From: Eshraghiella crossota
GTDB lineage: Bacteria > Bacillota > Clostridia > Christensenellales > CAG-917
Reading direction: 5' to 3'
Length of the DNA stretch: 64,000 nt
Assembly (NCBI GenBank): GCA_963590075.1
Contig: CAVANK010000003.1
Coordinates: forward strand, 12,100 to 76,099
In this document: one piece after another, positions 9,258 through 44,996 of the stretch
Layout of the letters: the number at the start of each line of letters is the position of its first letter
Position numbering within the stretch: position 1 is the first letter of the stretch
Notes under the pieces: generated by a model
The model's database searches: none
Told to the model about the DNA's origin: nothing
What the model saw: only the letters and a program-made list of their open reading frames with translations
Made by a program: the position numbers and the translations under genes

Positions 9258-9385
9258 CCGCCGAAATGCAATCTTACAATGCTTCGCATATTTGATTTTT
9301 TATATGTACGCAAACCCGTGCAAGCACAGTTGCGCACATATAAAAAATGCAACCCTACGGGTTACGTAAGATTGCATTTCGGTGG
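9258..9385. repeat. Nested imperfect palindrome of about 130 nt abutting the 3' end of tRNA-Ser
   Basis: Outer arms CCGCCGAAATGCAATCTTAC (9258-9277) and GTAAGATTGCATTTCGGTGG (9366-9385) form 20 bp with one G-T pair. Inner arms at 9296-9313 and 9330-9347 form 18 bp with one mismatch. A small AACCC-TAC-GGGTT hairpin at 9351-9363 is followed by a T-run on the - strand and is the likely tRNA terminator. Confidence 0.7.
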
Positions 9386-9475
9386 CGGAGAAGAAGAGAT
9401 TCGAACTCTTGAACCGCTTTTGACGGTTACGCGATTTCCAGTCGCGCGCCCTCGACCAAACTAGGCGACTTCTCC
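9383..9475 (-). tRNA. tRNA-Ser (anticodon GGA)
   Basis: The reverse complement reads GGAGAAGTCGCCTAGTTTGGTCGAGGGCGCGCGACTGGAAATCGCGTAACCGTCAAAAGCGGTTCAAGAGTTCGAATCTCTTCTTCTCCGCCA. It has a 7-bp acceptor stem, a CGCGA/TCGCG anticodon stem with loop CTGGAAA, a long variable arm, the T-loop GTTCGAATC and an encoded CCA. Confidence 0.93.
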
Positions 9476-32277: not shown

Positions 32278-33135
32278 ATGAAAACTTACGACGGAAGAGT
32301 GATAAAAGCGGTTGCATCAAAATTTTTCGTTGACACCAAAGACGGCGTCAAGGTTTGTTTTGCGCGCAAACGCCTCAAAAACGACGGAATTATATTCGTC
32401 GGTGATTACGTCACCATCGTAAAAGACCGCGACAGTTTTGTCATCGAGGACGTAAAACCGCGCAAAAACCGCCTCATTAGACCGTACGTAAGCAATATCG
32501 ACGTGTGTTTTATCGTCATTGCACCCGAGCCCGAACCCGATTTCGTGCTTGTTGACAAGGTTATTGTCAACTGCCTTGCGGAAGGCATAGAGCCTGTGCT
32601 CGTAAAGAACAAGTGCGATATAAAAGATATCGATACGAGCGAATACGACGGCGTAGTGGAGCAAATCGAGTGTTCGGCTTCGACTAGTCAAAACGTTGCA
32701 AAACTCATCGAATACGCAAAAGGCAAAACGGCGTGTTTTGCGGGACAGTCGGCGGTCGGAAAAAGCTCGCTTCTCAACGCAATTCTCGATAGCGACGAGC
32801 TGGAAGTCGGGGAGCTTACGCGAAAGATAAAACGAGGAAAAAACACAACTCGCAAGACGGAGATTTTTGCGGTCGGTAACGATACTTATTTTGTCGATAC
32901 GTGCGGTTTTTCAATGCTCGAAGCGGCAAAAATCGAACCGGAGGATTTGAGATTGTACTTTGACGACCTTGAAAAATATCGTCCCGAGTGTCGTTTTAAT
33001 ATGTGCGTGCATATTGACGAACCCGATTGCGCGGTAAAAGAGCACGTCGGCAAAGAGATAGGCGCGGGAAGATACGAAAGATATAAAACCATATATAACG
33101 AACTCGTCCAAAGACGAGAAAACAAATACGATTGA
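32278..33135 (+). CDS. rsgA: Ribosome small-subunit-dependent GTPase A
   Basis: The circularly permuted GTPase has NKCD before GQSAVGKSSLLN, and a C-terminal zinc knuckle CRFNMCVHIDEPDCAV. Confidence 0.9.
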   Translation: MKTYDGRVIKAVASKFFVDTKDGVKVCFARKRLKNDGIIFVGDYVTIVKDRDSFVIEDVKPRKNRLIRPYVSNIDVCFIVIAPEPEPDFVLVDKVIVNCLAEGIEPVLVKNKCDIKDIDTSEYDGVVEQIECSASTSQNVAKLIEYAKGKTACFAGQSAVGKSSLLNAILDSDELEVGELTRKIKRGKNTTRKTEIFAVGNDTYFVDTCGFSMLEAAKIEPEDLRLYFDDLEKYRPECRFNMCVHIDEPDCAVKEHVGKEIGAGRYERYKTIYNELVQRRENKYD

Positions 33136-33146
33136 GAGGTAGAATT

Positions 33147-33791
33147 ATGTTGATTGCACCGTCGTTGTTATCTGCGGATTTCGGCAATATGGCTGAGGCT
33201 GTTAGAGATGTCAAAGCGTTGGGCGGAGACCTAGTCCATTGCGACGTAATGGACGGCGTTTACGTGCCAAATATAACTTTCGGTATGCCGATGATAAAGG
33301 CAATCAGAAAGAACACCGATTTGCCCGTTGACGTGCATCTTATGATAACCAAGCCCGAAAGGTATGTCGGCGCGTTTTGCGATGCGGGTGCGGACTTTGT
33401 AGCTTTTCACCCGGATGCGTCCGAAGACGTGCAAGGTGCGCTCGATATCATCAAATCCAAAGGCAAAAAGTGCGGTCTCGTGGTCAACGCGGACGTTGAT
33501 TTCGATATAGCGGTGCCGTATCTCGACCAAATCGATTTGCTCGTGATTATGACCGTGCAAGCGGGTTTTGGCGGACAAAGTTTCAAACCCGAGTGCCTCG
33601 ACAAGGTGAGAAAGGGTGATAAACTCCGCAAGGAGAACGGATACAAATATCTCATCGAAGCGGACGGCGGTGTGTTTGAGGACAATATCGCATCTTGCAA
33701 AGAAGCGGGCGTAGATATCTCCGTTGCGGGAAGTGCGGTGTTCAACTCGAAAGATCCGAAGCAGACTATTGCGACGATGCATAACTGCTAA
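33147..33791 (+). CDS. rpe: Ribulose-phosphate 3-epimerase
   Basis: GAGAGG RBS. MLIAPSLLSADF...HCDVMDGVYVPNITFG...HLMI...VNPGFGGQ-like (TVQAGFGGQSF). Confidence 0.93.
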   Translation: MLIAPSLLSADFGNMAEAVRDVKALGGDLVHCDVMDGVYVPNITFGMPMIKAIRKNTDLPVDVHLMITKPERYVGAFCDAGADFVAFHPDASEDVQGALDIIKSKGKKCGLVVNADVDFDIAVPYLDQIDLLVIMTVQAGFGGQSFKPECLDKVRKGDKLRKENGYKYLIEADGGVFEDNIASCKEAGVDISVAGSAVFNSKDPKQTIATMHNC

Positions 33792-33996
33792 AACGCATCG
33801 TGTCCGTAGAACTGCGTATATAACGATCTGTTTCAAACAATCGATATGCTTGCAACGTTATGAAACGCGTTGCAAAAAACTGCAAAATCAAGCGTTTTTG
33901 CGCAATAAATTATCGGCGTTTACCGTCGATTTTTTATTATCGTGTAACATAAACGAGGGCGTTTTCATAATTTGTACAAAAACGAGGAGTGAAGAT

Positions 33997-34089
33997 ATGA
34001 GTAAGATTATTTGCATCAATCCGCCAAAGTTTATAAAAGCGATACTTAGATTTTTTTCAAAGCGGAAAAACGCCGATAAGAAAGAATAA
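33997..34089 (+). CDS. spoVM: SpoVM-like sporulation micro-protein (30 aa)
   Basis: A strong GAGGAG RBS lies 8 nt upstream. MSKIICINPPKFIKAILRFFSKRKNADKKE aligns with B. subtilis SpoVM as I recall it (MKFYTIKLPKFLGGIVRAMLGSFRKD) through the I-x-x-PKF-x-x-x-I-x-R core. It occupies the same position (rpe side of rpmB) as spoVM in Bacillus. Confidence 0.55.
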   Translation: MSKIICINPPKFIKAILRFFSKRKNADKKE

Positions 34090-34202
34090 GATGATATCCG
34101 CTTACGTTTAGGCTTTGCGTAGCACGTATATGCAAGCGTCGGATAGGTAAGACCGATAATAATTTTGTGCGGTTATTAAGCGAAACAGTAAAAACTTACA
34201 AC

Positions 34203-34228
34203 AAAAAAATGCCTTCCTTTCGGAAGGC
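34203..34228 (-). terminator. Rho-independent terminator of rpmB
   Basis: GCCTTCC (34211-34217) pairs with GGAAGGC (34222-34228). The A7 run at 34203-34209 becomes the U-tract on the - strand. Confidence 0.75.
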
Positions 34229-34258
34229 TAACTTTGATTGCTACCTATTTAGAGACAA

Positions 34259-34450
34259 TTACGCTCTGTCAACTTTGCCTGAACGAAGACAATGAGTGCA
34301 AACATATACGTCTTCAACACCGCCGGTCGGAGTGTTGACTTTGACTTTTTGGACGTTGGGAGCCCAACTGCGTCTTGTCTTTCTGTTGCTGTGGCTGACT
34401 GCGTTTCCGCTCATTCTGCCTTTTCCGCATACACTACAAACTCTGGACAT
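34259..34450 (-). CDS. rpmB: 50S ribosomal protein L28
   Basis: AGGAGG RBS. The protein is [38 protein letters not shown]..., 63 aa. Confidence 0.95.
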
Positions 34451-34582
34451 AACTGTACCTCCTAATTTGAACGATTGATATTGTATCAAATACGTTTGGA
34501 TTTTGCAACCGATTTGCACAAAATTTACGTTTTAGTTGCAAAAAATATTTATTTATAGTAGTATTTATAAAAAGGTTAGGAT

Positions 34583-34933
34583 ATGTCACTTACAACTTCA
34601 AACAAATTTGGCAAGATTTCCATCAGCGAAGAGGCTATGCAGACAGTTGCAAGCCATACCGCTCAGGACTGTTATGGCGTGGTAGATTTGGTATCGCGTC
34701 GTTTCAGCGATAACATCGGTCAACTTTGGGGCAAATCGCAACTCGGCAAAGGTGCGGTGGTTCAAACCGTCGACAACCTTATTTACGTCGAGTTGTTCGT
34801 CGTTTTGAAAGTGGGTGTAAATATAGAAGCAGTAAAAAAGTCCCTTGCGGATGCAGTCAAGTTCTCGCTTGAAACGTTTACTGGTATGCGCGTGAAGCGC
34901 GTCCACGTCAACGTCGTGGGTATCCGCGTGTAA
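34583..34933 (+). CDS. Asp23/Gls24 family envelope stress protein (YloU-like)
   Basis: The 116-aa protein contains ISEEAMQTVASHTAQDCYGVVDL and lies in the conserved position upstream of the DAK2 protein gene. Confidence 0.85.
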   Translation: MSLTTSNKFGKISISEEAMQTVASHTAQDCYGVVDLVSRRFSDNIGQLWGKSQLGKGAVVQTVDNLIYVELFVVLKVGVNIEAVKKSLADAVKFSLETFTGMRVKRVHVNVVGIRV

Positions 34934-34947
34934 GGTTATACGATAAA

Positions 34948-36600
34948 ATGAATAGAATTGACGGATTAAAATTCAAAGAGATGCTTGCGGGCGGTGTCAA
35001 AGCGCTCGAAATGAATAGGACCATCGTTGACGAACTCAACGTGTTTCCCGTTCCCGACGGAGATACCGGCACGAATATGTCCTTGACGCTTGCATCGGCT
35101 ATGCGTGAGGCAAACGCTTGCGGGTCTTTGCTCATCGACGAAATCGCAATGGCGTTTTCAAAAGGCGCGTTGAGAGGCGCAAGAGGCAACTCCGGTGTTA
35201 TATCTTCGCAAATTTTCAGAGGATTCGCAGTCGCGCTCGAAGGCAAGGCGGATTTGTCGCCCAAGACTTTTGCCGAGTGTCTCAAAAAAGGTACGGAAAT
35301 CGCTTATAGTGCAGTCACAAAGCCCAAGGAAGGCACTATTCTCACTGTTGTGAGAGTTATGGCGGAAGAGGCTGTGTCTGCAAGCAGAGGCAAGAAGGTG
35401 GAATTTGCCACATTCCTCAAGCGCGTTATCGATGCGGGCGAAGATATTCTTCAAAAGACGCCGGATATGTTGCCCGTCCTCAAAAAAGCGGGCGTCGTCG
35501 ACGCGGGCGGTAGAGGGCTCGTGACGGTGTTTGACGGTATGTATCGCACGCTCGTGGGAGAGGAACTTGTCCTCATAAGCGGTGGCAAGGTCGAAGAAAA
35601 GAACTTTGCCGAGATCAAGAGCGTCGGAGAATTCGATCCTCTTGAAAACGACTACGAGCATATCACCTTCCAGTATTGCACGGAATACTTCATTACGCAC
35701 CTCAAAAACGAGGTTACGGACGCTGCAATCGACAAATATCGCGATTATCTTACCACGATAGGCGATTGCGTGCTTGTCATCGGTGACACCGATCTCGTAA
35801 AAACGCACGTCCACACCAATCACCCCGACAGAGCGCTCAAAGCAGCTCTTAACCTCGGTGAGCTCGACGGCGTAAAAATCGAGAATATGCTTGAACAAAA
35901 CCGCAAAATCCACGCCAATGACAAGCCTGAAGAGGAAGCGGAACTCAAAGATTACGCAATGGTGTCCATTTGCTCGGGCGACGGTATGGCAAACATATTC
36001 AAAGACTTGATGGTGGATATTATCGTCGAGGGCGGACAAACGATGAACCCTAGTGTTGACGATATCCTCAAAGCGGTCAACGAGGCAAACGCCAAAAACG
36101 TATTTATATTGCCCAACAACTCCAATATAATTCTTGCCGCAAATCAAACGAAAGACCTTGCAAAGGCACAAGTTTTCGTCATCCCGACCACAAATATGCC
36201 GCAAGGCATTTCCGCATCGTTGATGTTTGACGCGGATAGCACGCCGGAAGAGAACTACGAGAGTATGTGCGAGGCAATCAAGAGTGTTGAATGTGCCGAA
36301 GTCACTCACGCGGTGCGCTCTACGAGGATGAACCGTTTCTCCGTCAAAGAGGGCGATATAATCGGCATTTGCGACAAAAAGTTGGTCGCAAAAGGCTCGG
36401 ATGTCGAACAAACGACGCTCGACACCATAGACAAACTTGCAAAAGGCAAAGATATGTTGTCCGTATACTTCGGTCAAGACGTGACGCAAGAAGAGGCGGA
36501 CTCGCTTATGCAAAAAGTTGCCGATAAGTACGATTGGCTTGAAACGGCGTGTTATAGAGGCGGTCAACCGCATTATTATTACATACTTTCGGCTGAATGA
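34948..36600 (+). CDS. DAK2 domain fusion protein (YloV-like)
   Basis: The DAK2 N-terminus is VFPVPDGDTGTNMSLT...RGARGNSGVI. The C-terminal DegV-like/uncharacterised domain is typical of YloV. Confidence 0.85.
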   Translation: MNRIDGLKFKEMLAGGVKALEMNRTIVDELNVFPVPDGDTGTNMSLTLASAMREANACGSLLIDEIAMAFSKGALRGARGNSGVISSQIFRGFAVALEGKADLSPKTFAECLKKGTEIAYSAVTKPKEGTILTVVRVMAEEAVSASRGKKVEFATFLKRVIDAGEDILQKTPDMLPVLKKAGVVDAGGRGLVTVFDGMYRTLVGEELVLISGGKVEEKNFAEIKSVGEFDPLENDYEHITFQYCTEYFITHLKNEVTDAAIDKYRDYLTTIGDCVLVIGDTDLVKTHVHTNHPDRALKAALNLGELDGVKIENMLEQNRKIHANDKPEEEAELKDYAMVSICSGDGMANIFKDLMVDIIVEGGQTMNPSVDDILKAVNEANAKNVFILPNNSNIILAANQTKDLAKAQVFVIPTTNMPQGISASLMFDADSTPEENYESMCEAIKSVECAEVTHAVRSTRMNRFSVKEGDIIGICDKKLVAKGSDVEQTTLDTIDKLAKGKDMLSVYFGQDVTQEEADSLMQKVADKYDWLETACYRGGQPHYYYILSAE

Positions 36601-36601
36601 T

Positions 36602-38629
36602 ATGTTGCAACTCAAAGATATAAAAGGCGTCGGTGACGCAACGGTGAAAAAACTTCACGACCTTGGCATCAACAGTGTGTTCGAGGTCTTTTCATTTTTG
36701 CCGAGAAAATATATTGATTTGCAAAGTCCCGTAAAAGTTCTCGACGCTCCGCAAAATCAACTTTGTTTGCTGGAAGGCAGAGTGGAAAAGGTCGGTGACG
36801 TATCACCGAGGGGCAAACACTCATTTTTCGTCACATTCAGTGACAATCTTTCAAACAACAAAACTTATTTTAAAGCAACGTTTTTCAATATGCCTTTTTT
36901 GCACGACGGATTTCAAACGGGGCAGAATTATAGAATGCTCACGAGATTGGCTTCTGACAGGGGCGCACTCAACGTTGTAAATCCGTCCCTTGAAAAGATT
37001 GAGAAAATATCAAAACTCGACGGTATTTACACCGTATATCCTCTCAAAAACGTGATGGGGCAGAACGCCTACAAGAATATAGTTTATTCCGCGCTCGACA
37101 CTCTTCAAAACATAAAGTACGACGGAAGCCTTGCCAAAATCAACAAAGATATGGCAACTTGTTTTGAGCTTGCGCACCGTCCTCAAAGTCTCGATATTGC
37201 GGAAAGAGCGTTGAAATCGCTTGCTTCGCTCGATATTGCAATCGTGCTATCTATTTATAGAAAACTGCGCAATAATGGCAAAAAAGAGAGAAAAGTATTT
37301 TATAATTTAGCCGATTTTAGAATAGTTGACTATATTTCCGCGCTAAAATTCACTCCGACGCCCTCGCAAATGCAAGCGTTTGAAGATATATTGAGCGACG
37401 TAAAATCTTCCCGTACGATGTCGAGAATAATAAGCGGTGACGTAGGAAGCGGTAAGACGGCGGTTGCGTTTTTTGCGATGTATCTTGCATCGGTTTGCGG
37501 TAAGCAATGCGCGCTTATGACACCTACGGAAATTCTTGCAAAACAACATGCAGAAAAGTTGGCGCCTATTGCGCAAAAACTCGGAATAAAGTACGCGCTT
37601 CTTACAAGTTCCACAACTTCCACGCAAAGAAAAGCTATTCTTGACGGGCTGAAAAGCGGAGAAATATCTTGCGTAATCGGCACTAACGCGCTCGTTAGCG
37701 ACGACGTGATATATCGCAATCTTACGCTTGCGATTATCGACGAACAACATCGGTTCGGCGTAAACGTGAGAGGAAAACTCGAAAAGAAGGGCGCGTGCGA
37801 CGTTTTGAGTATGACCGCAACGCCAATTCCTCGTTCCATGGCGTTGACTTTTTACGACGATATCGCAATATCCCGTATCGAAAAGCGCGAAGATGCAAAA
37901 ACCAACGTTATCACCACCGTTTCAAACGACCTCGATGTGCTCGTATCTCGCGTATGCAGTGCGTTAGATGACGGAAAACAAGCGTTTATCGTCTGTCCGT
38001 CAATCATAGATGCCGAGGGTAACGATTTGACTTCGATTGAGAGTTTTACGCGCGATTATAAAGCGGTTATAGATAAATATTCCACATCGATTATTCACGG
38101 CAAATTGTCCAACGAAGAAAAAGAATGCGCGATGAACGATTTTTCGAGCGGAAAAACTCGACTTTTGGTCGCTACGACGGTTATCGAAGTGGGTATTGAC
38201 ACCAAAGCGACGGAAATTTTGGTTGTCAACGCCGATCGTTTCGGTCTTGCGTCGCTACATCAGTTGCGCGGACGCGTCGGAAGGGACGGCTCGGAAGCGC
38301 ATTGCTATCTTCATTCTTCGTCGCAAAGCGAAAAATCGGCGGAAAGACTGGATATTCTTTGCAAGTGCAACGACGGACAGTATCTTGCCGAGGCGGATTT
38401 TGCTATGCGCGGAGCAGGCGATTTTATCGGCACGAGACAAAGCGGTCGTTCGACTACGCCTATTTTCGACTTGCAAATGAACGGTGAAGTGCTCAAAAAC
38501 GCCAAATCTTATGCCGACGAGAATTTGTCAAATCTTCCGCTTTGCGATTTGCTTGCGCTAACGAGAAGAAGCAAGGCAAGAGTTGACGCGTTCCTCGAAG
38601 AACTTGACGAAGTTACGCTAAACAGTTGA
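36602..38629 (+). CDS. recG: ATP-dependent DNA helicase RecG
   Basis: ATG 36602 overlaps the upstream stop. The wedge domain is followed by GDVGSGKT, DEQHRFGV, and QLHQLRGRVGR with TRG-motif-like GDFIGTRQSG. Confidence 0.93.
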   Translation: MLQLKDIKGVGDATVKKLHDLGINSVFEVFSFLPRKYIDLQSPVKVLDAPQNQLCLLEGRVEKVGDVSPRGKHSFFVTFSDNLSNNKTYFKATFFNMPFLHDGFQTGQNYRMLTRLASDRGALNVVNPSLEKIEKISKLDGIYTVYPLKNVMGQNAYKNIVYSALDTLQNIKYDGSLAKINKDMATCFELAHRPQSLDIAERALKSLASLDIAIVLSIYRKLRNNGKKERKVFYNLADFRIVDYISALKFTPTPSQMQAFEDILSDVKSSRTMSRIISGDVGSGKTAVAFFAMYLASVCGKQCALMTPTEILAKQHAEKLAPIAQKLGIKYALLTSSTTSTQRKAILDGLKSGEISCVIGTNALVSDDVIYRNLTLAIIDEQHRFGVNVRGKLEKKGACDVLSMTATPIPRSMALTFYDDIAISRIEKREDAKTNVITTVSNDLDVLVSRVCSALDDGKQAFIVCPSIIDAEGNDLTSIESFTRDYKAVIDKYSTSIIHGKLSNEEKECAMNDFSSGKTRLLVATTVIEVGIDTKATEILVVNADRFGLASLHQLRGRVGRDGSEAHCYLHSSSQSEKSAERLDILCKCNDGQYLAEADFAMRGAGDFIGTRQSGRSTTPIFDLQMNGEVLKNAKSYADENLSNLPLCDLLALTRRSKARVDAFLEELDEVTLNS

Positions 38630-38685
38630 TTTTACACGATTTTTGCCTTACATGTGGTCTATTTTGCAGTATTTTGCAGTCTTGT

Positions 38686-38713
38686 TTGACATTTTTATTG
38701 TAATGTGTATAAT
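38686..38713 (+). promoter_or_regulatory. Consensus sigma-A promoter driving the large ncRNA
   Basis: TTGACA (38686-38691), a 16-nt spacer, then TATAAT (38708-38713). The predicted TSS at about 38720-38722 coincides with the start of the closing helix of the RNA. Confidence 0.7.
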
Positions 38714-38721
38714 ATAATTAA

Positions 38722-39297
38722 ATGGTGGTGCAGTATTCTAGTCAGATTCCACCGACTCGGAGGCGGGGGTAAAATATCGCCGAAGGGCATATCGATGAAG
38801 TTTCTGGTGACGGCTTCTTTTGCCCAAATTGGGGCTGTTGCTGGGAGTTAAGGTTTTTGGGCGGCTTGCAACGGCATGCAAACCCCGTACCAATTTCCGT
38901 GGAGACCCAACTCGGTGGGCAATGTAAAAACTGTCTACTGACTGGGGTGAAACCTGATATGCGGTGTAAAAATGCTGTGTACAGTGTAGCCTGCTTTGAG
39001 TGACGTATAGGGATTAGGGATCACGCCTTTTCGTATGGCCAATACGCGACGGTGATTGCCCGATGAAATGTACGTTGCAAAAAAAGATAAGGGCGGGCGG
39101 AATCTGTCAAGGAAATCTTCTAGACTGTTCTTTGAGGCAATCTGGGGATTATAGTGCGCTCTAAGTGGCGATTCGGTTTCTTCTTAAAGACGATGCGACG
39201 AGTAATAGGAAACTTCTCGGACGGCGACGACGAGTTTCGACGCAGGGAAATCCTACCGAACCTATGGCGCAAGGTTTACCCAAATTGTCACCACCAT
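38722..39297 (+). ncRNA. ole: Large structured non-coding RNA of about 575 nt, most likely OLE (ornate, large, extremophilic) RNA
   Basis: No ORF of 60 aa or more occurs in any frame from 38630 to 39164, and the region is richer in G+C than other spacers. The closing helix is ATGGTGGTG (38722-38730) with CACCACCAT (39289-39297). Long-range helices are CAGATTCC (38743-38750) with GGAATCTG (39099-39106), TCTAG (38737-38741) with CTAGA (39120-39124), and CCACCGA (38749-38755) with TCGGTGG (38912-38918). A local hairpin lies at 38866-38881. A four-TM protein gene follows directly, then tlyA-nadK-argR-recN, which is the published OLE/oapA neighbourhood. Confidence 0.7.
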
Positions 39298-39323
39298 CAA
39301 AGCAAGAAAATTTGAGGTATTTC

Positions 39324-40217
39324 GTGGATAATCTCAATCAACAAGAAGCGGACGCTTCCAATATACCGTTGCCATCGAAAGAGCAGTCTTCCGATGGTAT
39401 TTCTTTTTCGCAAAACGGTCAAAACGGTGCGGTAGATACTCAAAATGCCGTTACAATTGAAAAAATTTCAACCGACGTCGCAACTGCGCGCCAACCAAAA
39501 ACAGAACATCCCGACAAGAAGAAAAAGCCCAAGAAAAAACGCAACCTTTGGTGGATAAAAGCCATTATAATTTCACTTGTTTTGTCCGCGTTTTTCTCAT
39601 ATATAAGCAACCTTGTAGAGAACGCCGACCAACTTGTCGTGGTTATCGTTTTGCTTGCGTTCCTCGTGCTTACGGGTATCTTGTTCGACGCAATCGGTGT
39701 GGCGGTGACTTCGTGTGACGTAACGCCTATCATATCGATGGCTTCGAGAAAGGTTTACGGCGCAAAAACTGCGTTAAACCTTGTCAAAAACAGCGATACC
39801 GTATCGAGTGTGTGCAACGATATAATCGGTGATATTTTCAGTATTATATCGGGTGCTTGCTCGGCGGCACTCGTCGTCAAAATCACCGTATCTCTTCAAG
39901 AAACGTGGCAAATCGTCGTATCTATTGCGGTGTCCGCTCTCGTCTCGGCAATGACGATAGGCGGTAAAGCGTTTATGAAGAAGATTGCAATCGACAATTC
40001 AAAAGACTTTGTAATGTTCGTAGCGCGCATACTTGCAATTTTCTCAAAGGAAGAGCGGAAGATCCGCAAGAAAAACAAAGCCGATAAGGCGGAAAATTCG
40101 GGTAAAACGGACAAATCAAGCAAATCATATAAAAACGAGAAAATCGAAAAATTTGATAAAAACGATAATAAAAACGTGGCAACTTCTGCAAAATCTAAGG
40201 ATAAAAAAGCAAAATAA
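39324..40217 (+). CDS. oapA: OapA-like (OLE-associated protein A) four-TM membrane protein with polar N- and Lys-rich C-terminal extensions
   Basis: GTG 39324 has GAGG (39314-39317) 6 nt upstream and lies just 3' of the RNA closing helix. Four TM helices are predicted (LWWIKAIIISLVLSAFF; LVVVIVLLAFLVLTGILFDAIGV; VCNDIIGDIFSIISGACSAALVV; IVVSIAVSALVSAMTIGG), with an Asp-x3-Asp motif (DIIGD) in TM3. The annotated ORF start at 39165 lies inside the RNA and is rejected. Confidence 0.55.
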   Translation: MDNLNQQEADASNIPLPSKEQSSDGISFSQNGQNGAVDTQNAVTIEKISTDVATARQPKTEHPDKKKKPKKKRNLWWIKAIIISLVLSAFFSYISNLVENADQLVVVIVLLAFLVLTGILFDAIGVAVTSCDVTPIISMASRKVYGAKTALNLVKNSDTVSSVCNDIIGDIFSIISGACSAALVVKITVSLQETWQIVVSIAVSALVSAMTIGGKAFMKKIAIDNSKDFVMFVARILAIFSKEERKIRKKNKADKAENSGKTDKSSKSYKNEKIEKFDKNDNKNVATSAKSKDKKAK

Positions 40218-40250
40218 TCAAAAAACGCAACGACGTTTGTACTTGAAATT

Positions 40251-40961
40251 ATGCGACTTGACAAGTATATACAAGACAAATTCAATCTAAAATCTCGCAC
40301 TTATGCCGAAAACCTTATAAAAACGGGCAACGTTTTCGTCGACGGAAAAGCGGTTACCAAAAGCGGTGAGGACGTTGACGACAGCAACGTCGTTGAGATT
40401 TTTGACAATCAAAATTTTGCCTCGCAAGGTGCGTATAAACTTGAAAAGGCGTTTGAAGAGTGGCATATCGACGTTACGAGCAAGTATTGCGCGGATATCG
40501 GATGCTCCAACGGCGGTTTTACCGATTGTCTTTTAAGGCACGGTGCAAACGAAGTGCTTGCGGTTGACGTCGGGGAGTGCGCTCTTGACAAAAGATTGTT
40601 AGATAGCGGAAAAGTCAAGTTTTTGCGTGCAAACGCAAGGGAGCTTCCGCCTCTTGAACAAGTTGATTTTTTGTGCAGTGATTTGAGTTTCATATCCTTA
40701 AAATACGTGCTCGGTTCTATGTTTTCGCTATTGAAAAACGGCGGTGAAGCGGTGGTGCTTGTCAAACCTCAATTTGAACTCGACAAGTCCGCACTCAACA
40801 AAAACGGCATAGTAAAGAGCGAAAAATTGCGAAAAATCGCCCTTGAAAACGTCAAAAATTATGTCAGAGATTGCGGTTTTGTCATAAAAGGCGAGACGAT
40901 TTCACCCATACGCTACGAAAATAAAAACGTCGAGTATTTGCTATATTTGCAAAAGCCGTAA
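40251..40961 (+). CDS. tlyA: TlyA family rRNA (cytidine-2'-O)-methyltransferase
   Basis: An S4 domain (MRLDKYIQDKFNLKSRTYAENLIKTGNVFVDGKAV) is followed by an FtsJ-type SAM-binding motif (CADIGCSNGGFTDCLL). Confidence 0.9.
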   Translation: MRLDKYIQDKFNLKSRTYAENLIKTGNVFVDGKAVTKSGEDVDDSNVVEIFDNQNFASQGAYKLEKAFEEWHIDVTSKYCADIGCSNGGFTDCLLRHGANEVLAVDVGECALDKRLLDSGKVKFLRANARELPPLEQVDFLCSDLSFISLKYVLGSMFSLLKNGGEAVVLVKPQFELDKSALNKNGIVKSEKLRKIALENVKNYVRDCGFVIKGETISPIRYENKNVEYLLYLQKP

Positions 40962-40995
40962 TCGATTTATTGCGGTTAAATCAAACGATTTGAAA

Positions 40996-41027
40996 AAGTA
41001 AGAGTGGCACGTGCCACTCTTTTTAGT
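40996..41027. terminator. Bidirectional rho-independent terminator
   Basis: Perfect palindrome AGAGTGGCAC/GTGCCACTCT (41001-41020), flanked by GAAAAAGTA and TTTTTAGTTTT. It lies between convergent tlyA and the small membrane protein gene. Confidence 0.85.
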
Positions 41028-41105
41028 TTTTGATATTGCGCAATATCGATTTTTATATCGTGCGATATCGTCTTAAAAATTATCGATATTTGTCGTTGAA
41101 ACAGA

Positions 41106-41414
41106 TTATTTTTTTTCGATATCGGTGTTGGGCGTTGTTTCGGGTGTTTCCGTATCGGTAGCCGTTTGTGCGTTTGCGTTGTCGCTATTTTCGGGATCGG
41201 CGTCCTTACCTTTGGATTTTTTGGATTTCTTTTTCTTGCCGTCGTCGGCGGTTTGGTCTTGTTTGCCAACCTTGGTGTCGGGATAAGACGGTTTGGATTT
41301 TTTGTTGTTGACATAGAATACGCACACAACAATTATTATAGCAAAAATAAGTCCCGAGAGTCCCGCGACAAGTTTTGAGCCAAATCCGGATATACAAATC
41401 AAAGTTTCAAGCAT
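41106..41414 (-). CDS. Small single-TM protein with a Lys-rich/acidic disordered tail (hypothetical)
   Basis: The protein begins MLETLICISGFGSKLVAGLSGLIFAIIIVVCVFYV, followed by NNKKSKPSYPDTKVGKQDQTADDGKKKKSKKSKGKD and an acidic T/E-rich tail. The ATG at 41414 lies 7 nt after a -10 box. No family recognised. Confidence 0.5.
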   Translation of the reverse strand: MLETLICISGFGSKLVAGLSGLIFAIIIVVCVFYVNNKKSKPSYPDTKVGKQDQTADDGKKKKSKKSKGKDADPENSDNANAQTATDTETPETTPNTDIEKK

Positions 41415-41420
41415 ATTTTT

Positions 41421-41448
41421 ATTATACAACGAGTAGCGAAAAAGTCAA
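41421..41448 (-). promoter_or_regulatory. Sigma-A promoter positioned for a leaderless transcript of the small membrane protein gene
   Basis: On the - strand: TTGACT (41448-41443), a 16-nt spacer, then TATAAT (41426-41421). The ATG begins at 41414, six nt after the -10 hexamer. Confidence 0.55.
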
Positions 41449-41515
41449 ACACATTGATGCATAGTACAAAAATGCATAAAATTGCAAAATAGTATATAAA
41501 ATATTCATTTTATAC

Positions 41516-41544
41516 TTGTATTCAAAGGGGAAAAGTTGTATAAT
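41516..41544 (+). promoter_or_regulatory. Sigma-A promoter positioned for a leaderless or near-leaderless nadK-argR-recN transcript
   Basis: TTGTAT (41516-41521), a 17-nt spacer, then TATAAT (41539-41544). The nadK ATG at 41553 is only 8 nt downstream and has no Shine-Dalgarno sequence. Confidence 0.55.
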
Positions 41545-41552
41545 ACGCATAA

Positions 41553-42359
41553 ATGAAAGAAAAAGTTGCAATCGTTACAAAAGCGGGCTTGACCGATATA
41601 AAAGAGCGTATTGCCATCGTTGACGAGATAACAAACGACGGCGATTTTGACGTATACGAGCTTAAAGTCGGTGAGGAATACAAAGACGGCACTTCGATTG
41701 CGGTGGTTTTCGGCGGTGACGGAACTATGCTTGAAGCCGTTCGAGGGGCAAAAGGCACGGACATCGCCTTCTTTGGCGTAAATCTCGGCAATCTCGGTTT
41801 TTTGACGTCTTGTGAGAAAAACGAGAGCGCAAAAAATATCGTAAACGCCCTAAAAGAGCGCAAATGCGCGGAGCGGATGCTTCTTTGCGGAAGCGTGAAC
41901 GGCAACGATTTTCAAGCGCTTAACGAGGTCGTGATAAAAAGCGCGACTTCGAGACCTATATACGTTGACTTGTTTATAGACGGCAACTTCGTCGATTGCT
42001 ACCATAGCGACGGCGCAATCGTAGCGTCTCCGACGGGTTCGACGGCGTATTCGCTTTCGGCGGGAGGTCCTATCGTCGCTCCGAGCGTTGACGCGCTTAC
42101 TGTCAATCCGATTTGCCCGCACTCGCTTCATTCTCGTCCGCTCGTAGTGGACGCAAACTCGAAGATTGTTCTTTCGCTTCACGGCAGTGAAACGGCAAGC
42201 GTTTTTGCGGACGGAAAGTTTATTTTGGGCGCAAAAGACGGAGACGAAATCGTCGTGAAAAAATCCGAAAACAAAGCAAAATTTATCATTGCAAACAGCG
42301 ATGATTTTTATAAAAAACTACTTCAAAAGATGAACAGATGGGGAGTTACCTCACGGTAA
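41553..42359 (+). CDS. nadK: NAD kinase
   Basis: GGDGTML motif, followed by NLGNLGFLT and the TGSTAYSLSAGGPIV signature. Confidence 0.93.
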   Translation: MKEKVAIVTKAGLTDIKERIAIVDEITNDGDFDVYELKVGEEYKDGTSIAVVFGGDGTMLEAVRGAKGTDIAFFGVNLGNLGFLTSCEKNESAKNIVNALKERKCAERMLLCGSVNGNDFQALNEVVIKSATSRPIYVDLFIDGNFVDCYHSDGAIVASPTGSTAYSLSAGGPIVAPSVDALTVNPICPHSLHSRPLVVDANSKIVLSLHGSETASVFADGKFILGAKDGDEIVVKKSENKAKFIIANSDDFYKKLLQKMNRWGVTSR

Positions 42360-44670: not shown

Positions 44671-44993
44671 GCGAGTTAGCCGGACGGTCGCATGAAATAT
44701 TTGAGGAAAGTCCGAGCATCACAGGGCATGGGTGCCGGGTAACTCCCGGTGAAGGCGACTTCAAGGACAGTGCAACAGAAAAATACCGCCGATTTTTCGG
44801 TAAGGATGGAAAGGCGAGGTAAGAGCTCACCCGCAATTTGGCGACAATGCGCGATGTAAACCCCACTCGATGCAAGATCGGGAACGCGAAAAAGTGGCCC
44901 GCAAAGTTCCCCACATCGCTTGAAACGTGCAGAAATGTACGTTCTAGATAGATGACCGTCAAACACAGAACTCGGCTTACAGACTAATCTCGC
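44671..44993 (+). ncRNA. rnpB: RNase P RNA (bacterial type A)
   Basis: The universally conserved GAGGAAAGTCCGAGC lies at 44703-44717. Also present are GGGTGCCGGGTAACTCCCGG, ACAGAAAAATACCGCC, GGTAAGAGCTCACC, and ACAGAACTCGGCTTACAG at 44965-44982. P1 forms between GCGAGTTAG (5') and CTAATCTCGC (3'). Ends are accurate to about 10 nt. Confidence 0.92.
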
Positions 44994-44996
44994 TAT

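Follow-up and report, generated by a model that had tools for sequence, protein, structure and literature searches.

The OLE (ornate, large, extremophilic) RNA family was described in 2006; its members measure about 600 nt, and roughly a quarter of their positions hardly vary. In Halalkalibacterium halodurans, the ole gene presumably lies inside an ispA/dxs cluster. The function and architecture of the RNA, as used here for comparison, are drawn from published work on this and other hosts (PMC12265935; PMC11332333; PMC7936274; PMC10898510). In the published architecture, P1 and P2 are part of domain 2, P3 is the stem joining the domains, and the loops of P4, P5.1/P6.1 and P9 are reported as contacts of an RNA dimer; the sites of the membrane protein OapA are palindromes near P2 and P4a, and P3 has been proposed, from partial cryo-EM structures, to span the membrane (PMC12265935). 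The primary site of a second protein, OapB, is formed by a GNRA tetraloop and a bulge in P13 (PMC7936274), and the GCGA loop of P14.1 provides a weaker one. A published survey reported 2,822 OLE genes across Bacillota and set aside 24 non-Bacillota hits; about 40% of OLE-carrying species were found without OapB, and loss of the P13 site was described for variant 1 (PMC11332333). In addition, argR and a NAD kinase gene are frequent neighbours of ole, and ArgR is itself an OLE-binding protein (PMC10898510), while an Asp23-family gene (yqhY) is also among the frequent neighbours (PMC12265935).

Herein, an OLE gene is described in a stretch of 64,000 nucleotides, referred to as the window. With Rfam 15 and its gathering thresholds, a scan of the entire window returned three matches (OLE, RNase P RNA and one tRNA), of which OLE (RF01071) extends over 38709-39310 (+) with 410.5 bits and E = 3.8e-117. 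This is about eight times the gathering score of 50 for RF01071, and the alignment runs from position 1 to 616 of the 616-position model without truncation, taking in A/U-rich flanks. Since the covariance match is decisive, the element can be assigned, at a probability of roughly 97%, to ole, encoding a full-length OLE RNA ahead of oapA in a Christensenella-like anaerobe of the Bacillota, and neither to a new class nor to ROOL, GOLLD, HEARO or raiA. The initial annotation, which had seen a large structured RNA of about 575 nt that was probably OLE, was thus correct on both counts, the RNA measuring 576 nt from one P1 strand to the other. Of the large-RNA models considered (OLE, ROOL, GOLLD, HEARO and raiA), OLE alone matched, unambiguously. 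Within 38400-41700, a permissive Rfam scan (E <= 1) found no other family overlapping the element and no match to ROOL, GOLLD, HEARO or raiA; these, including the raiA motif, are likewise large and highly structured ncRNAs and have no relationship to it. The same scan gave three minus-strand matches at 40834-41133 to enterobacterial or Yersinia sRNA families, which were discarded as noise, their bit scores lying far under the gathering scores.

Several properties of the sequence agree with this assignment. When compared with 101 other OLE RNAs, the window copy agrees at 215 of the 220 columns with a conservation of 90% or more, and 132 of the 154 Rfam pairs are standard pairs in it, the remaining 22 not being so. 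The element, described earlier as visibly richer in G+C than the other spacers, indeed has a G+C fraction of 0.493, against 0.26-0.33 in four other spacers and a window mean of 0.456. Furthermore, the single-sequence minimum free energy (MFE) fold of the 576-nt RNA reaches -198.4 kcal/mol (z = -2.75), a value equalled by 0 of 100 dinucleotide shuffles, and without constraints this fold closes the molecule through all three long-range helices listed as P1, P2 and P3 in Table 1. The likeness to the ole-oapA locus of H. halodurans extends to the conserved blocks, to P1-P14 with P7-P9 of normal length, and to the adjoining oapA.

The distribution of related copies points in the same direction. One genome per species was scanned for the conserved 5' motif GTGGTGCAGTATNCTAGTCA, which gave at least 120 loci, and among the matches listed almost all are from Bacillota. 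The closest OLE copies among these matches belong to Christensenella sp. UBA767 (94.7% identity over 732 nt) and UBA7588 (96.0% over 650 nt), followed by four MAGs at 83-91% identity. A host among the anaerobic or extremophilic Bacillota is therefore indicated, the nearest copies being in Christensenella MAGs, named as in their records. The window region is identical to a 78-kb contig of the MAG assembly GCA_963623735.1, on which the tlyA product is encoded identically and the gene order is the same. Christensenella is not mentioned in one supplementary file of the published survey (PMC11332333). A separate observation concerns a MAG labelled Deltaproteobacteria (L045, JBLMYQ010000034.1), in which OLE is followed by an oapA homologue; its OLE copy is probably due to a binning error or to transfer, comparable to the 24 non-Bacillota hits set aside in the survey (PMC11332333).

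The genes around the element are arranged in the order recG, OLE, oapA, tlyA, a small minus-strand ORF, nadK, argR and recN, so that the succession of membrane protein gene, tlyA, nadK, argR and recN is as first described. Downstream of OLE in 120 listed 8-kb loci, tlyA was found in 60, nadK in 21, argR in 29 and recN in 25; recG stands upstream of OLE only in the Christensenella-like clade, that is, in 7 of the loci listed. The presence of argR and a NAD kinase gene nearby is shared with loci of the H. halodurans type (PMC10898510). No relevant publication linking OLE RNA to tlyA or recN came up in a literature search. Farther upstream, a block at 32278-38629 comprises rsgA, rpe, a 121-aa ORF without an assigned family, rpmB on the minus strand, an Asp23-family gene (34583-34933), fakA/yloV and recG; the longest recG ORF begins at TTG 36518 and shares 83 nt with fakA, and in public calls the gene starts 28 codons farther on. 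The minus-strand ORF between tlyA and nadK (41106-41429) encodes 107 aa from a TTG, or 102 aa in public calls; its product has a single hydrophobic segment ahead of a tail rich in Lys, Asp and Thr, and no credible family match. This ORF interrupts a cluster that is otherwise co-directional and accounts for the strong negative AT skew at this place. Two other RNA genes were recorded in the window. A class A RNase P RNA at 44672-44996 (+), scoring 241.1 bits over the full model, lies about 100 nt downstream of recN and is a second structured RNA gene of this cluster, and a tRNA-Ser (anticodon GGA), whose variable arm is long, occupies 9383-9475 (-), the Rfam match covering 9386-9475.

Table 1. 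Features of the ole-oapA locus, with helix names following the published OLE nomenclature (window coordinates).
Feature	Position	Strand	Remarks
Sigma-A-type promoter	38686-38713	+	TTGACA 38686-38691, 16-nt spacer, TATAAT 38708-38713; 12/12 in consensus scan
OLE RNA	38722-39297	+	P1 5' strand to P1 3' strand, 576 nt
Putative P1, 5' strand, closing helix	38722-38730	+	Pairs with 39289/39290-39297; recovered by MFE fold
Putative P2, UCUAG	38737-38741	+	Pairs with CUAGA 39120-39124
Putative P3, CAGAUUCC	38743-38750	+	Pairs with GGAAUCUG 39099-39106
Putative P4, A-rich loop hairpin GGCGGGGGUAAAAUAUCGCC	38762-38781	+	Rfam alignment; helix 1, 93.8% paired
Palindrome AUCGAU, P4a region	38791-38796	+	Within conserved GGGCAUAUCGAUGAAG block
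Putative P5/P5.1, long hairpin	38801-38847	+	Loop GCCCA 38822-38826; Rfam alignment
Putative P6/P6.1, long hairpin	38852-38898	+	P6.1 38866-38881, loop ACGGCA
Putative P7 hairpin	38906-38946	+	Rfam alignment
Putative P8 hairpin	38954-38984	+	Rfam alignment
Putative P9 hairpin	38993-39087	+	Palindromic loop GGCC 39037-39040; Rfam alignment
Putative 3' domain, P12-P14	39136-39289	+	Rfam alignment, deletions in P13 loop
P13, 4-bp stem, CUUA loop, without GNRA tetraloop	39179-39190	+	Rfam alignment
P14.1 GCGA tetraloop	39224-39227	+	Rfam alignment; kept in the window
Putative P1, 3' strand, CACCACCAU	39289-39297	+	Pairing on the 102-sequence alignment
oapA ribosome-binding site GAGG	39314-39317	+	6 nt before GTG; TGAGGT conserved
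oapA, 297 aa	39324-40217	+	GTG start; homologues downstream of OLE

The secondary structure was assessed on a MAFFT alignment of the window copy with 101 full-length OLE RNAs (n = 102), onto which the Rfam consensus structure, threaded on the window, and the helices of the initial annotation were projected; covariation was counted on this alignment, which is noisy in the variable tips of P7-P9 (helices 12-15). The Rfam structure is 84.7% paired across the 102 sequences, compared with 40-46% in controls in which it was slid along the alignment. Compensatory changes on both sides occur at 124 of the 154 Rfam pairs, and the covariation score is 0.487, the slid controls reaching at most 0.146. With pairing and covariation this far above the controls, the alignment was considered good enough to judge individual helices. 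By region, helices 2-5 (P5-P6.1) are 80-98% paired with many compensatory pairs, and helices 18-23 of the 3' domain are 92-99% paired, except the single-pair helix 22 at 62%.

Five complementary pairs had been listed from the sequence of the window, and all are exact at their positions. Three of them are long-range helices that are absent from Rfam's structure line and are jointly 88.6% paired on the alignment, as against 32-54% when slid. From their order and the UCUAG/CUAGA palindrome, we take them to be the published P1, P2 and P3. The P2 helix is paired in 100% of the 102 sequences, with UA replaced by CG in 17, and in the P3 helix pairing is about 76% and most positions show compensatory changes, the distal pairs being noisy in MAFFT; both stand as long-range helices. 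In P1, 92.9% of the cells are paired and the two variable outer pairs exchange among GC, UA, AU and CG, which upholds the helix except at its innermost pair. There, G38730 and G39136 are rival partners of C39289, and covariation is better for the Rfam pair, G39136-C39289: alignment columns 648/818 covary (GU 36, CG 19, GC 18, AU 9), and columns 9/818 are unpaired in 33 sequences. Judged by these columns, C39289 is more likely to pair with G39136 and so to close the 3' domain. The local hairpin TTGCA/TGCAA is identical to pairs of the Rfam structure and would correspond to P6.1. Of the listed helices, P1-P3 and the hairpin are upheld, and the fifth is not. This helix, CCACCGA/TCGGTGG at 38749-38755/38912-38918, was rejected as a chance match because its pairing (42.9%) is at the mean of shuffled sequences (42.5%) and because it overlaps a covarying Rfam helix.

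The elements by which OLE RNAs are reported to dimerise are present in the Rfam alignment of the window copy, namely the A-rich P4 loop, the GCCCA loop, a GGC within the 38866-38881 hairpin and the palindromic GGCC loop. The OLE RNAs of C. acetobutylicum and C. botulinum, for which partial cryo-EM dimer structures are available (PMC12265935), share with the window the A-rich P4 loop, GCCCA in P5.1 facing GGC in P6.1, and the P9 loop GGCC. Two loops differ in detail from other OLE RNAs, the P4 loop reading GUAAAAUAU in the window as against CUAAAAAUC in the majority, and the P6.1 loop reading CGGC instead of UGGC. The segments of P7, P8 and P9 measure 45, 29 and 75 nt, next to medians of 46, 29 and 78 nt in 93 OLE RNAs; because of these lengths, the window copy is placed with the full-length type and not with variants 1 or 2 (PMC11332333).

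Transcription of the gene can be considered from its upstream and downstream borders. The -10 element of the promoter sits 8 nt before the first helix, P1, and transcription is predicted to start near 38720-38721, 1-2 nt ahead of P1. TTGACA-N16/17-TATAAT recurs at an equal distance from the OLE 5' end in six relatives (L075, L003, L010, L114, L052 and L048), and the sequence farther upstream is unrelated in four of the six nearest relatives among the matches listed. Since the two hexamers are kept at a fixed distance despite diverged upstream sequence, the promoter is regarded as real and dedicated to the element, and the consensus promoter noted at first sight, with all 12 consensus positions, is corroborated by its retention in the relatives. 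This arrangement, with a consensus promoter of its own after recG, differs from that in H. halodurans, where the ole cluster is transcribed as one polycistronic RNA (PMC12265935). As a side observation, a perfect tandem duplication, TATTTTGCAG TATTTTGCAG, occupies 38660-38679 (+) and ends 6 nt before the -35 hexamer; it is degenerate in the nearest relative (L075) and may serve as an UP-like element or as the site of a regulator.

At the other border, a terminator scan detected no plus-strand terminator-like site at 38700-39330, and none before 39663, which agrees with the earlier remark that no terminator separates the element from the membrane protein gene. Because of this, the RNA is very probably made within the oapA transcript. 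From this anatomy, ole and oapA would be transcribed together from the promoter at 38686-38713, and the RNA of about 576 nt may either remain attached to the oapA message as its 5' portion or be freed by processing. The missing terminator, together with a ribosome-binding site 16 nt past P1, also suits a different interpretation, in which the element would be no more than a long, structured 5' leader that controls oapA in cis, without any function as a separate RNA. This interpretation is nevertheless very improbable, given that the OLE RNA of H. halodurans is abundant, membrane-localised and bound by OapA, OapB, OapC and bS21 (PMC12265935), that the window copy has kept the conserved dimerisation loops and the two OapA palindromes, and that about 220 near-invariant positions across distant Bacillota go far beyond the needs of known leaders. 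An OLE RNA with a function of its own, co-transcribed with oapA, is therefore preferred.

The gene that follows encodes an OapA homologue; in 102 of the 120 loci listed, a homologue comes immediately after OLE in the same orientation. In a Kyte-Doolittle scan, its hydrophobic stretches were grouped as four segments (residues 74-99, 96-137, 166-192 and 194-216), and comparison with the Pfam family CNNM (DUF21, PF01595) gave 26.3 bits and E = 6.9e-6, below the cut-off of 28.4; a sub-threshold CNNM similarity of this kind has been published for OapA (PMC11332333). Outside this core, the product has a low-complexity N-terminal stretch of about 70 aa (39324-39545) that is specific to the lineage and ends in KKKKPKKKR, and its C-terminal tail of about 50 aa (40056-40217) is rich in Lys.

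The start codon of oapA deserves separate treatment, as two public assemblies of identical sequence (L121 and L122) disagree on it, one calling a product of 297 aa and one of 350 aa. The longer call begins at GTG 39165, from which the frame is open, and would imply a membrane protein with a 53-residue N-terminal extension encoded through the 3' third of the element. Upstream of that codon, the claim that the region is free of ORFs is accurate, since the longest ORFs from the recG stop (TGA 38627-38629) up to 39165 have 48-58 aa and so fall short of 60 aa. The open frame and the 350-aa call in one public assembly are what speaks for coding from 39165, and against it stand several features. The extension would overlap the covarying helices P12-P14 and P1. 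Furthermore, P1 is followed by CAAAGCAAGAAAAUUUGAGGUAUUUC and then by GTG 39324, which places the start 26 nt after the last helix, and six relatives have TGAGGT followed by GTG or ATG at the matching place. Translation of the 39165 frame through the region, a scenario that the initial annotation had kept in view, is contradicted by the two nearest relatives, in which in-frame stops lie 5 codons (L075) and 1 codon (L003) upstream of the start that matches GTG 39324. In addition, the other assembly calls the 297-aa product, and the OapA proteins of other clades are homologous only to residues of about 65-255 of the 297-aa form. Considering the conserved ribosome-binding site and start at 39324 and the in-frame stops in these relatives, the 350-aa ORF is an accidental open frame over the RNA and an annotation artefact, and the odds that this part of the element is coding are very slim indeed. 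The 350-aa call in one public assembly is thus wrong and should read 297-aa oapA, and the mis-called start is a mildly new point.

The sole departure of the window copy from the majority form of OLE lies in P13. Among 93 anchorable sequences, the majority P13 has a 31-nt segment with a GG-GNRA-C loop, whereas the segment between the conserved anchors measures 25 nt in the window, L003 and L075 and 21 nt in L052. In the P13 of all four, a GNRA loop is absent, and P7-P9 are of full length. The short P13 of the window therefore lacks the OapB-binding GNRA tetraloop and single-nucleotide bulge that form the primary site in the H. halodurans type (PMC7936274). A similar loss characterises variant 1 (TANB77-type, Fernando and Breaker 2024), in which the OapB-site nucleotides at the P13 tip are missing as they are in the window (PMC11332333). 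In that variant, however, P7, P8 and P9 are shortened as well, whereas in the window they are of median length. As OapB is lacking in published variants and in about 40% of OLE hosts (PMC11332333), the absence of the site is no bar to membership of the OLE family.

A shortened P13 without its tetraloop, in a copy in which 22 of the 154 Rfam pairs are non-standard, might alternatively be read as a sign that this OLE copy is decaying and non-functional. Such decay has hardly any likelihood: the same form of P13 is common to relatives at 83-96% identity in which the other helices and the promoter are maintained, the conserved blocks and oapA are intact, and the frequency of OLE-carrying species without OapB (PMC11332333) applies here as well. 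Least credible is the idea that a new class of large structured RNA merely occupies the usual OLE locus, an alternative left open by the initial annotation and excluded here by the full-length RF01071 match at eight times the gathering score, with no competing Rfam family on the element at E <= 1, by the retention of 215 of 220 conserved OLE columns and by the presence of every OLE helix, P13 being shortened.

Taking the element as a functional OLE RNA, the form of P13 suggests that the particle of this Christensenella-like lineage probably works without OapB bound at the primary site, and the picture of the particle established for H. halodurans is therefore not transferable unchanged. Pfam scans of four small ORFs of the window identified ribosomal protein L28 and an Asp23-family protein; none of the four had a product like OapB (KOW/SBB fold) or OapC (L7Ae family). 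That the OLE RNAs of the Christensenella clade form a distinct sub-type, defined by a full-length domain 1, a 4-bp CUUA hairpin as P13, an OapB-free primary site and a conserved consensus promoter of its own rather than a long upstream operon, is a tentative proposal to which we give somewhat less than even odds.

By analogy with H. halodurans and the two Clostridium species, the RNA of this lineage would have two domains, connected through the P3 stem, and may dimerise through the loops of P4, P5.1/P6.1 and P9. OapA, a four-helix membrane protein distantly related to the CNNM/MpfA Mg2+ transporters, would on the same analogy bind the palindromes near P2 and P4a and hold the RNA at the membrane, and the resulting particle may help the cell against cold, short-chain alcohols, excess Mg2+ and poor carbon sources.

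Altogether, OLE remains an interesting unsolved RNA, large and proposed to span the membrane. The window copy itself is an ordinary member of a family that is already known, and its novelty as such is nil, because the same gene is present in close relatives of the lineage; any Rfam scan would find it, and it matters little beyond correct annotation. The reduction of P13 in an otherwise full-length OLE RNA is a mildly new point, and a full-length Christensenella-like OLE without the OapB tetraloop makes a small addition to the evidence that OapB is dispensable in some lineages. If oapB is missing from the genomes of this clade, what OapB contributes could be studied on a naturally minimal OLE particle in a human-gut lineage that can be cultivated.
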